UHGV virus genome: UHGV-0011358
DNA: 56,349 nt
Strand: one strand, 5' to 3'
Source: a virus
Shown: one piece after another, positions 46,550 to 48,578 of the stretch
Numbering within the stretch: the stretch's first letter is position 1
Layout of the letters: each line of letters begins with the position of its first letter
Program-made: the position numbers and the translations under genes
The notes under the pieces: model-generated
Database searches by the model: none
Told to the model about the DNA's origin: nothing
What the model saw: only the letters and a program-made list of their open reading frames with translations

Positions 46550-47077
46550 CTATTTGCCGTGATTTTCATGATAGCCATACTCTTTTTCAGCGTCTAGCCG
46601 CGCTTTTATCGCGTCATTAATATTAGAAAAACACCCTATATAAACTCTATCACCTCTCTTGCCTCCACCTATTCTAACAACCCATTTACCATGTTTATTT
46701 TTATGGATACCAGAATATCCGCTGGTATTGTTTACCATTAAAGACATGTTGCGCATATTATCTTTATGGTCTTTTAATCCAAGATTGACGGCTCGATTAT
46801 CTGTTTTAACGTGATTTATATGATCAACCTCCTTACCTTCAGGTATTGGTCCATAGTACATCTCGTAACATATTCTATGCACCTTTAAATTATAACGCTT
46901 TCCACCCACGGTAAGCGCTGTATTAAGATACCCACCGCTTCCGCCAATATGCCCAACTTCATGACCAGCATTACACGCATTCCATTGTTTACGCCTTGAT
47001 TCTTCTATGTCATTTCTATATTTCCAGTACAACTTACCTGTGTCTGGATTGTATATAAAATAATCATCCCAATTCAT
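46550..47077 (-). CDS. HNH homing endonuclease (HNH plus AP2-like)
   Basis: EVDHINHVKTDNRAVNL motif; paralog family. Confidence 0.75.
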   Translation of the reverse strand: MNWDDYFIYNPDTGKLYWKYRNDIEESRRKQWNACNAGHEVGHIGGSGGYLNTALTVGGKRYNLKVHRICYEMYYGPIPEGKEVDHINHVKTDNRAVNLGLKDHKDNMRNMSLMVNNTSGYSGIHKNKHGKWVVRIGGGKRGDRVYIGCFSNINDAIKARLDAEKEYGYHENHGK

Positions 47078-47607
47078 TTTCTACCCTCAAACGTGAAATA
47101 GCGGCGCATGATGATAGTAATCACCGTTACCGCTGCCATTTTTGAGATGAATTGCATAGCTGATATTTCCGGCATAAACGCCATAAACGATAGCGTAGGA
47201 AAAATTAACGCATCACCAATGGCGGACGCTATATTTGCAGGCCAACGTTTAGAATCAAAGTCACCAGGTAAAACCCGGTAAACGCCGCCAGAAATAAGCG
47301 CACCGGAAACAACCGCGACGAATGACGCGATCGCCACCATCCCGGCGTCGTAATTTATCAGCACCGTGATTGCGCCAGCGGCGGCGCATGTTGTAGCCGA
47401 CCATTTCAGGCCGCCGTCGTATAAAAGAAAGTCACGGATCATCATATTTACACACACTGCGGCTACCGTAGTGATAGGAATTACCCACGGGCCGCAATGG
47501 TTAACAATAAGGTTGATGATCACGAAAACGGCGACATAAACGCAGGCCAGTAACCTGTCAATTGCCACCTTTTCCATTTGGCTATCCCTCTTCTGACTGA
47601 TACCCAA
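47074..47607 (-). CDS. multi-pass membrane protein (possible VUT/YhhQ-like)
   Basis: 177 aa, several TM helices; loose pattern similarity to queuosine-precursor transporters. Confidence 0.45.
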   Translation of the reverse strand: MGISQKRDSQMEKVAIDRLLACVYVAVFVIINLIVNHCGPWVIPITTVAAVCVNMMIRDFLLYDGGLKWSATTCAAAGAITVLINYDAGMVAIASFVAVVSGALISGGVYRVLPGDFDSKRWPANIASAIGDALIFPTLSFMAFMPEISAMQFISKMAAVTVITIIMRRYFTFEGRK

Positions 47608-48055
47608 AATTCAAATCAAGCAAATCAGTAGTGCAACGACATTGAGGGTTAATCTCTGAAGAGCCATTACGGAATGTTATAACCCCATCATTTATTATTC
47701 CATCATTAATATTGGCGGCAGTGAACTGATTTTTCTTTTGCTCATTCTCCCGATCATTTAATATTTGCTCCGCTTTTAGTGCGCTGTAGCTGATTAAGTC
47801 AACCAAAGTATCAGTAGGGTCAGAACCATTAGCCAAAATTGCCTCTAAACGCGCCTCCTTAAGACAAATCAACAGATCCCATACATCAAGTGGGGTTAAA
47901 TTTGCGCCCTTCTTAGCGTTGTAAATGGTGGCTATTTTTGGCGCTGATTTTTCTTCTTTTCTGTCGTAGCCGTTTTGTTTACCTCTTTGCTCTATTGTTT
48001 CTGCTGCAAGTCGTAATAAATCTGCTGCACTAGTCATTTTCTGCACCTCTTGCAT
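47582..48055 (-). CDS. hypothetical protein
   Basis: 157 aa ORF tightly packed between the membrane protein and methyltransferase genes. Confidence 0.45.
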   Translation of the reverse strand: MQEVQKMTSAADLLRLAAETIEQRGKQNGYDRKEEKSAPKIATIYNAKKGANLTPLDVWDLLICLKEARLEAILANGSDPTDTLVDLISYSALKAEQILNDRENEQKKNQFTAANINDGIINDGVITFRNGSSEINPQCRCTTDLLDLNFGYQSEEG

Positions 48056-48578
48056 ATAGCTCTTTACGTGTTATCTGCGTGAAAATACATTCATGTCTGC
48101 ACCGTGGATGCCAGATCAAAAACAAGCTCCCTTTGTTGTTTCCGCTCACTGGCTTACCAGTCGCAGCATTTATAAAAGCCAGCCGCCCGCGCGTTATTAA
48201 TCTGCATTCGTTTGCCGTCTCAACGCCGTTCATAAACCAGCTAACAGAAATGTCAGCGGGCAATAACATTACGCAACCGATGTGATTTCGTTGATGTTCA
48301 ATCGCCGCTTTATCAACGAATGGCCCCGGGTTCGAATATGGTGGATTCATCCAGACATACTCACCAGGCATTGCCACCGCTCCCCACGGATAAGTAAGCG
48401 TGTCCATTTCTTCGGTTATATATCGCGGTATTAATGCGTTTGCCTTGTTTGCCGCCACGTCAGCGACAAATTCAAACTCACGATCCATTCCCCTGAAAAC
48501 TGGTTTAGGTGTCTGCCACAGGTCTTTAATTTCCTTCGGCGTGCTACTGCCTCCAAAATCATTTTTCATTATGACCAC
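48030..48578 (-). CDS. phage Dam-family N6-adenine DNA methyltransferase
   Basis: NPPY catalytic motif in WMNPPYS and surrounding phage-Dam family pattern. Confidence 0.8.
   Translation of the reverse strand: MVIMKNDFGGSSTPKEIKDLWQTPKPVFRGMDREFEFVADVAANKANALIPRYITEEMDTLTYPWGAVAMPGEYVWMNPPYSNPGPFVDKAAIEHQRNHIGCVMLLPADISVSWFMNGVETANECRLITRGRLAFINAATGKPVSGNNKGSLFLIWHPRCRHECIFTQITRKELYARGAEND

Follow-up and report, generated by a model that had tools for sequence, protein, structure and literature searches.

A Dam-type methyltransferase and a putative YhhQ-like transporter of the VUT family in a DpdA-less gene cassette of mEp021-like coliphages

In E. coli the queuosine precursors preQ0 and preQ1 are imported by YhhQ, a VUT-family protein (COG1738, PF02592) of 221 amino acids (aa) that has six transmembrane helices and an insertion between helices, is S-component-like and works without an ECF module. 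The presence of YhhQ homologues in some phages has been noted already (PMC6884629). In phage CAjan the yhhQ gene, which encodes gp41, sits within a 7-deazaguanine cluster (PMC7544227) where it adjoins the gene for DpdA and also those for FolE, QueC, QueD, and QueE, and the VUT genes of the T1-like phages Opt-719 and LHE71 likewise adjoin a gene for DpdA. CAjan DpdA is a DNA guanine transglycosylase and its deletion abolishes preQ0 in phage DNA (PMC7544227). Phages are also known to encode Dam methylases. The Dam enzymes of T1, HP1, and the Stx phages are proteins of about 180 aa with an NPPY motif, they belong to the PF05869/TIGR01712 family, and they methylate GATC. Here we describe a gene cassette at positions 47074-48578, on the minus strand, of UHGV-0011358, a stretch of 56,349 nucleotides that was analysed at its full length and is called the window below. 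The cassette encodes a Dam-type DNA methyltransferase, a DUF6378 protein, and a membrane protein of the VUT type, in this order. The same cassette, at 87-92% nucleotide identity, is present as gp30-gp33 in coliphage mEp021 (MH706966), where gp30 is annotated as 'putative DNA N-6 adenine methyltransferase', gp31 as 'hypothetical protein', gp32 as 'putative membrane protein, 6 transmembrane domains', and gp33 as 'putative DNA cytosine methyltransferase'. In the place of gp33 the window has an HNH endonuclease gene instead, and in both phages ipe or its homologue lies just upstream of the cassette. The published annotation of mEp021 did not recognise gp32 as VUT-type, and when PMC11893012, the report on this phage group, was searched by term no discussion of the function of the cassette was found. 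The window VUT protein resembles CAjan gp41 and the T1-like VUT proteins in its length (158-167 aa) and in its six helices. What sets the window apart from those phages is that it has neither DpdA nor FolE, QueC, QueD, or QueE and that its VUT gene lies among genes of methyltransferase type.

The three open reading frames (ORFs) of the cassette were found exactly where the original prediction had placed them, all on the minus strand. The maximal ORF of Dam (48030-48578) has 182 aa from GTG 48578 and its likely start is ATG 48569, which stands behind the ribosome-binding site GGGTGG and gives a protein of 179 aa (48030-48569), as in mEp021. The maximal ORF of the DUF6378 protein (47582-48055) has 157 aa and its likely start is ATG 48037 ('MTSAADLL'), which matches that of its homologues and gives 151 aa (47582-48037). 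The maximal ORF of the VUT protein (47074-47607) has 177 aa from TTG 47607 and its likely start is ATG 47577 behind AGAGGGA, which gives 167 aa (47074-47577). With these likely starts, the stop of Dam and the start of DUF6378 overlap at ATGACTAG, the DUF6378 stop is 4 nt from the ATG of VUT, and the TGA of VUT overlaps the ATG of the next gene, that of the HNH endonuclease, in an ATGA at 47077-47074. Because these ORFs overlap or abut they form one translationally coupled unit, and in being coupled to DUF6378 and VUT the window Dam differs from the Dam enzymes of T1, HP1, and the Stx phages. Upstream of the unit there is a terminator-like hairpin on the minus strand (49208-49184; 11-bp stem, 6 pairs of it GC, followed by a T-rich tail) where mEp021 has TERM_3 (t3), just upstream of gp28. 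Downstream of the slot that is filled by the HNH gene there is a conserved intergenic region (46350-46549, minus strand), corresponding to nutR2/t4 of mEp021 and containing TGTGATCCATATCACA at 46471-46486, that is more than 90% identical to mEp021 over the aligned 181 nt regardless of the gene in the slot. On the mEp021 map the predicted terminator t3 likewise precedes the unit and nutR2 and t4 follow it (PMC11893012; mEp021 annotation). Thus, the use of the term operon in the original prediction is justified by the overlapping or abutting ORFs, the upstream hairpin, and the conserved nutR2/t4 region downstream. What had been left out there was the middle gene, DUF6378, and the absence of DpdA, the usual partner of VUT.

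The assignment of the first gene to the Dam family, proposed originally from its NPPY motif, was confirmed by two profiles and by the motif itself. The protein matched Pfam PF05869 with an E value of 5.6e-52 and 176.3 bits (cutoff 28.1), residues 11-179 aligning to positions 2-167 of the 169 in the profile, and it matched the NCBIfam equivalog TIGR01712 with 138.9 bits (cutoff 97.05) and also phrog_111. The catalytic motif IV, (D/N)PP(Y/F), is present as NPPY at residues 78-81 when numbered from the GTG start. Relatives of this protein occur in 1,777 phage records and its identity was 42% to Dam of Stx phages, 40% to that of HP1, and 37% to that of T1. The gene is under purifying selection with a dN/dS of 0.053. 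By analogy with these relatives, a GATC specificity of the window Dam is a reasonable inference and an anti-restriction role is plausible for an orphan phage methyltransferase such as this one. The methylase part of the cassette is ordinary and was already annotated in mEp021.

The membrane protein had been suggested, from a loose resemblance, to be possibly of the VUT/YhhQ type. When the window protein was compared on its own with Pfam Vut_1 (PF02592) it scored 12.2 bits with an E value of 0.24, which is below the cutoff of 27.2, and the alignment ran end to end, residues 23-167 on positions 6-149 of the 152 in the profile. It had no match in NCBIfam, in PHROGs it matched only phrog_4899, a family of unknown function, and neither BLASTP of this single sequence to CAjan gp41 nor a pairwise comparison with YhhQ was significant. 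A k-mer-indexed homologue search returned only 12 close relatives. However, an exhaustive search of 1.8 billion representative proteins with a profile made from six clade members (A1) gave 260 proteins with E<=1e-3, 63 of which had E<=1e-10, and 128 of the 131 full-length matches hit Vut_1 at E<=0.01. One of these 131 proteins is fused to QueF and three are fused to a DUF5020 outer-membrane barrel. The near relatives P0017 and P0020-P0022, with E values of 1.7e-20 to 2e-16 to A1, scored 34.7-47.3 bits with Vut_1 and thereby passed the same cutoff. Alignment by hhalign of the shallow A1 profile to YhhQ and to CAjan gp41 was non-significant, and deeper profiles were needed; with the 131-sequence family profile (A2) the match to E. 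coli YhhQ had 94.6% probability and an E value of 7e-8, which places the two in the same superfamily, and the match to CAjan gp41, an annotated preQ0 transporter, had 97.5% probability and an E value of 5e-12. In a tblastn search of isolated phages the window protein was 35% identical over 95% of its length (E 8e-23) to a 'VUT family protein' of T1-like Drexlerviridae. Calibration of Vut_1 gave 125.3 bits for E. coli YhhQ, 25.3 for CAjan gp41, and 13.9-15.8 for the T1-like proteins compared to 12.2 for the window protein. Since accepted phage members also fall below the threshold, low Pfam scores are normal for the short phage branch.

The predicted structure of the VUT protein, with a predicted local distance difference test score (pLDDT) of 93.7, has six helices in an ECF S-component-like fold; a first AlphaFold2 (AF2) model made from 6 sequences had a pLDDT of 64 and was not used for the fold search. 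No solved structure of a VUT protein turned up when the sequences of the PDB were searched with the family profile. Scanning of genome contigs with A1 found nothing and scanning with the profile A7 found only a 3.8-kb contig of a Succinivibrio metagenome-assembled genome, and in the viral scan A7 and A1 gave identical sets of 47 loci. In the profile searches Vut_1 alone stayed below threshold and A1 found 128 Vut_1 relatives among 131, and it is as homology, through transitive profiles, tblastn, and the predicted fold, that the VUT/YhhQ type was upheld. We conclude from these comparisons that the membrane protein is a divergent member of a short, phage-specific branch of the VUT/COG1738 (YhhQ/QPTR) family and, at 167 aa, a putative transporter.

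The window VUT protein has kept the family-wide core, namely N22, G29, R48-D49, A82-x-A84-S85, N115, D122, F126-P127, F131, Q142, and K146, and CAjan gp41 and the T1-like VUT proteins share with it N22, R-D, A-x-A-S, N115, D122..F-P, and Q..K. Changed in the window protein are the family-conserved positions H52, D96, N112, S114, S123, G132, G149-G150, and W153. Some of these changes, among them S96 and the non-His residue at 52, are common to the T1-like VUT proteins that are coupled to DpdA and they therefore mark a subclade and not the loss of DpdA. For the same reason, changes of the D96S type were rejected as a sign of a new substrate. Among 158 proteins from the A1 search there are about 26 of 278-348 aa (P0030, P0038, P0039, P0042, P0087, P0155, and about 20 others) in which the VUT domain is mostly N-terminal. 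Six of these were read, and in them a signal-like segment comes after the VUT domain and then a C-terminal domain that is beta-rich and has an aromatic last residue; three match DUF5020. If these long proteins are true fusions, an inner-membrane importer would be joined in them to an outer-membrane barrel.

What is most unusual about the window VUT gene is the absence of its usual partner. A motif, [LIV]FPT[IL]AFG, was derived from 19 short members of the family, and with it 534 confirmed relatives were obtained in IMG/VR, of which 80 loci were kept, genes were called in them, and the three neighbours on each side of VUT were clustered. A family of about 245 aa was found within two genes of VUT in 60 of the 75 loci in which VUT was called, mostly directly upstream. 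This family is phrog_887, 'queuine tRNA-ribosyltransferase', and its hidden Markov model (HMM) hit CAjan DpdA at 3.8e-42. In a six-frame search of the whole loci, 77 of 80 VUT loci had a DpdA-type gene; of the three without a match, one (L117) has a DSGAFS variant that the HMMs missed and one (L066) ends just after VUT. DpdA lies directly upstream of the P0017 and P0020 genes and downstream of the P0016 gene, and it is adjacent to VUT in L052, L053, and L056. Among the T1-like phages, Opt-719 and LHE71 each have behind VUT a gene that hit the DpdA HMM, at 3e-57 and 6e-63, respectively. In the window no DpdA was found by two HMMs, made from 60 and 9 neighbour proteins, in a six-frame search of its whole length (best E 0.44), nor was one found with CAjan DpdA, with the L117 variant, or with the motif D[NS]G[ACGS][FYW] in six-frame segments of >=40 aa. 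FolE, QueC, QueD, and QueE were not found in the window either (all E>0.3), and Pfam and PHROG scans of its larger non-structural ORFs gave nothing related to DpdA or Que. On these HMM, six-frame, motif, and Pfam/PHROG searches we rejected the idea that the window hides a DpdA or Que gene. A putative importer of VUT type is present, and an importer alone does not make a 7-deazaguanine DNA-modification system.

The arrangement of the window is conserved. In IMG/VR, 46 loci encode a VUT protein that is 96-99% identical to that of the window; Dam is upstream of VUT in all 46 of them and DUF6378 lies between the two in at least 45, the exception being L033, where no DUF6378 alignment passed the length filter. 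Over 37 distinct alleles the dN of VUT was 0.009 and its dS was 0.27, a dN/dS of 0.035, and no other protein of the cassette is as conserved. This strong purifying selection argues that the gene is functional and is not decaying after the loss of a DpdA module. What does vary is the slot downstream of VUT. It holds a Dcm-like methyltransferase gene in mEp021, in MagusPhagus, and in most of the IMG/VR relatives, a truncated Dcm-like ORF in L044-L046, an HNH gene in the window, L007, and L011 (3 of 47 loci), and nothing in L026. The HNH_3 endonuclease gene of the window (46550-47077, minus strand; Pfam HNH_3 E 3.2e-16; phrog_99) in the place of the Dcm-like gene of the sister phages looks like a free-standing homing endonuclease that invaded the slot. 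As to the slot proteins themselves, mEp021 gp33 (L001, 4246-5004, 252 aa) and its counterpart in L051 (6158-6862) were without a match in Pfam at E<=0.01. The protein from L051 matched phrog_757 'DNA methyltransferase' and its counterpart in L044 has SLYDGSG, which resembles motif I of C5-methyltransferases; the activity of all these proteins is putative.

The middle gene of the cassette encodes a protein that matched Pfam PF19905 with 32.8 bits (cutoff 27.1), residues 13-96 aligning to positions 2-79 of the 81 in the profile. Its close homologues are labelled 'DUF6378 domain-containing protein' in the source databases and none of them has an informative name; the protein also matches PHROG families with the doubtful label 'phosphofructokinase'. 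An alignment of homologues showed that an N-terminal domain of about 95 aa, residues 7-100, is conserved, with Q23-R24-G25, N28-G29-Y30-D31, K66-E67-A68-R69-L70-E71, and D79-P80-T81-D82-T83..D86..Y90 as its conserved positions. The tail after residue 100 (window 47582-47750) is hypervariable with indels and is missing in L051, and among near-identical phages whose VUT is 96-99% identical, DUF6378 is 58-94% identical overall. Searches of the PDB with the DUF6378 sequence and with its profile gave chance-level matches only (ribosomal protein S16, 'THR2', 'UNC_079'). The pattern K-x-x-R...D-x-x-D...Y of DUF6378 may resemble that of the DUF1599/MazG-like all-alpha nucleotide-binding domains. Stand-alone homologues of DUF6378 are present in 279 phage records and it is absent from the DpdA-VUT loci. 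The linkage of Dam and DUF6378 recurs outside the mEpimmI group to which mEp021 belongs, and in the Dhillonviruses EC115 (L140, 1274-3004) and Ioannina (L141, 774-2465) DUF6378 follows a PF05869 Dam at a distance of one or two genes and no VUT gene is present within the stretches inspected. The partner of DUF6378 may therefore be the methylase rather than the transporter. The DUF6378-containing protein of Ioannina itself carries the annotation of a second 'DNA N-6-adenine-methyltransferase'.

We interpret (Ipe)-Dam-DUF6378-VUT-(variable slot) as a DNA-modification cassette of an mEp021-like phage that is translationally coupled and belongs to the delayed-early genes. The orphan Dam would methylate phage DNA during lytic replication, probably at GATC, and progeny DNA would thereby be kept fully methylated and be shielded from those restriction enzymes that GATC methylation blocks; in sister phages the Dcm-like methylase would join Dam in protecting and methylating the replicating DNA. 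DUF6378 would be an accessory protein of the cassette. The VUT protein, with its predicted ECF S-component-like fold, probably functions as a secondary carrier on its own. Among other phages the short VUT branch appears to provide the import in a pair of genes whose other member, DpdA, swaps DNA guanine for a 7-deazaguanine, and since the nearest relatives of the window VUT are in T1-like coliphages such a DpdA module is the most likely origin of its gene. The protein most likely still imports a purine analogue like preQ0 or preQ1. From the published early-operon map of mEp021 we infer that the cassette is expressed in the N-dependent early rightward transcript. As a whole, a DNA-modification cassette with a transporter that still imports a preQ0/preQ1-like base is the reading that we find probable, although by a small measure.

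Several points weigh against this interpretation. With no DpdA and no preQ0 genes in the window, the imported 7-deazaguanine base would be left without a known phage-encoded user. E. coli has YhhQ as well as de novo synthesis of preQ0, so that extra import looks redundant. In CAjan, deletion of yhhQ left the DNA modification unchanged (PMC7544227), and the contribution of the transporter is therefore unproven even in phages with DpdA. The window protein by itself is not significantly similar to YhhQ, CAjan gp41, or Vut_1, its assignment being made through intermediate sequences, and it differs at several polar positions that the family conserves (H52, D96, N112, S114, S123, G149-G150), some of these changes being common to the DpdA-coupled T1-like proteins. 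The proposed GATC specificity is an analogy drawn at 37-42% identity and the proposed timing of expression is extrapolated from the mEp021 map.

Another explanation is that VUT was re-purposed after the loss of DpdA and now carries another small molecule, such as a methylation-related metabolite or a base analogue, tied to the methyltransferases or to DUF6378, so that the cassette would make or support an unrecognised modification of DNA or of the nucleotide pool. Support for this comes from three DpdA-less lineages in which VUT lies near methyltransferases of three different families. In the mEpimmI phages these are Dam and the Dcm-like enzyme. In L051, whose VUT (P0009) is 52% identical, they are Dam and the phrog_757 methyltransferase, the gene order being Dam, DUF6378 (99 aa), VUT, phrog_757 methyltransferase, NinG, RusA, Q. 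In L049, a 136-kb contig with a 47% identical VUT and without Dam or DUF6378, a PF01555 N4/N6 methyltransferase is two genes downstream. In addition, DUF6378 occupies the upstream position that is usually that of DpdA, about half of the conserved polar positions of the family are changed, and selection on VUT is strong although its partner is missing. However, many of the deviant residues (S96, non-His52) are common to the DpdA-coupled T1-like proteins, the core of N22, R48-D49, S85, N115, D122, and K146 is kept, and DUF6378 follows Dam in the Dhillonviruses with no VUT in the stretches inspected and may belong with Dam. A close relative, P0018 (36% identical), which lies beside a DNA ligase gene in a 128-kb phage, has no DpdA and also no methyltransferase within 6 kb. 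Moreover, no member of the VUT family is known to carry anything but queuosine precursors (PMC11130926). We regard a re-purposed transporter as unlikely.

The absence of a user enzyme for the imported base also fits the possibility that the membrane protein acts through the membrane, in superinfection exclusion, membrane perturbation, or lysis timing, and that its VUT ancestry is incidental. Small membrane proteins from the early region of phages often act in this way. The neighbouring gene in mEp021 is that of Ipe, 'inducer of pleiotropic effects', overexpression of which leads to haemolysis by HlyE vesicles and to cell death (PMC11893012), and a hydrophobic protein of 78 aa is encoded in the same unit. 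On the other hand, the protein keeps the residues that the family conserves within the helices, it has a high-confidence prediction of the complete six-helix S-component-like fold, the low dN/dS of VUT is spread along its whole length, and the gene belongs to the N-dependent early lytic unit rather than to an immunity or moron position. This makes a role in the membrane itself quite improbable. We give similarly little credence to Dam-DUF6378-VUT being a DpdA-independent route that uses an imported base analogue, with DUF6378 as part of a new enzyme or nucleotide-pool activity. On that account the imported purine analogue would be put into phage DNA or be used to disable host defence.

The original prediction had connected the methyltransferase with GATC-bearing palindromes elsewhere in the window, which would mean that the cassette sets Dam marks that regulate phage gene expression. 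There are two conspicuous palindromes with GATC, TGTGATCCATATCACA at 46471-46486, which is within the conserved nutR2/t4 region, and TGTGATCGCAATCACA at 49840-49855, and both are perfect and intergenic in the early operon. However, the window has 236 GATC sites compared to about 248 expected from its trinucleotide composition, so that they are neither enriched nor avoided, GATC-containing hairpins number 8 compared to 5.6 in shuffles, and no long palindrome centred on GATC was found in the window. What is enriched is TGTGA-N6-TCACA, of which both palindromes are copies. It has three perfect copies, the third of which (41543-41558) has no GATC, and with one mismatch or less it occurs 9 times compared to 1.66 expected, a number reached in 0 of 100 shuffles; the one-mismatch copies are at 9440, 19319, 20166, 21819, 36298, and 55458. 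Moreover, one arm of the 46471 site is degenerate in mEp021, and the host already has Dam. Since the enriched motif is TGTGA-N6-TCACA and not GATC, and sites and hairpins are at chance level, the link to Dam-dependent epigenetic regulation is unsupported and we consider it very improbable. We take TGTGA-N6-TCACA to be a CRP-type consensus, two perfect copies of which are intergenic in the early operon, and the copies may serve control by host CRP or be the operator of a phage regulator. Finally, a restriction-modification pair of Dam with the adjacent HNH protein, whose gene overlaps the end of the cassette, is effectively refuted, as the HNH gene is variable (3 of 47 loci, the slot being usually Dcm-like or empty) while Dam is constant, and it is one of four scattered HNH_3 paralogues, which is typical of free-standing homing endonucleases.

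The window itself is a near-complete, permuted genome of an mEp021-like (mEpimmI) temperate coliphage. Its cassette region is 87-92% identical in nucleotides to that of Escherichia phages mEp010, mEp013, mEp044, mEp021, mEp515, mEp554, and MagusPhagus. The mEpimmI group is reported to consist of Nus-dependent, non-lambdoid temperate coliphages that are prevalent in the human gut (PMC11893012). Elsewhere the window has genes for an integrase, a DnaB-type helicase, an O-like replication protein, Erf, SSB, a CI-like S24 repressor, NinB, NinG, RusA, and the Q antiterminator, and structural genes. Both of its ends fall inside the O-like replication gene (55982-56349 joined to 1-626), within the repeats of that gene, and it is from this that we deduce a near-complete and permuted genome; the two ends are mutually out of frame, which suggests an assembly break in the repeats. 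The repeated segment at the ends of the window codes for 'GVVSQSHWG' and probably holds origin iterons. Directly upstream of Dam is the homologue of mEp021 Ipe (48582-48833, minus strand; phrog_303), syntenic with mEp021_29 ipe and 83-95% identical across the related loci, and before it is the gene of the small hydrophobic protein of 78 aa (48820-49056, minus strand), which is syntenic with mEp021_28, is the first gene after the terminator-like hairpin, and is present in most of the related loci. The Ipe homologue thus shares the transcription unit of Dam with the 78-aa protein alongside. The four HNH_3 endonuclease genes are at 2785-3393 (plus strand), 45029-45556 (minus strand; called by eye from its translation, without a scan), 46550-47077 (minus strand), and 51515-51979 (minus strand). 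A protein of 232 aa at 39469-40167 (minus strand) has a weak KilA-N match at its N-terminus and a C-terminal DUF559/REase_MTES_1575 domain of Vsr-like endonuclease fold.

Phage Dam methylases and phage YhhQ-like transporters were already known and most of what is described here is ordinary. What is new with respect to the literature searched is the assignment of the membrane protein of the mEp021 group to VUT and the arrangement in which VUT is without DpdA and embedded among methyltransferases. Nothing yet demands a new mechanism. The pattern that emerges is that the short phage VUT is almost always paired with DpdA and that a small clade, with the mEpimmI phages at its head, departs from this. 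Either import of a queuosine precursor benefits a phage apart from DNA transglycosylation, or the VUT family has a second substrate. The question is directly testable, because E. coli K-12 is a host for mEp021 and its relatives and an assay for the transport of queuosine precursors exists in the complementation of a ΔqueD ΔyhhQ strain (PMC5372724, PMC11130926). If the DpdA-independent route were true, the mEpimmI phages would carry an undescribed DNA modification or counter-defence. Either outcome adds to what is known of the queuosine-precursor economy of the gut and of phage DNA modification.

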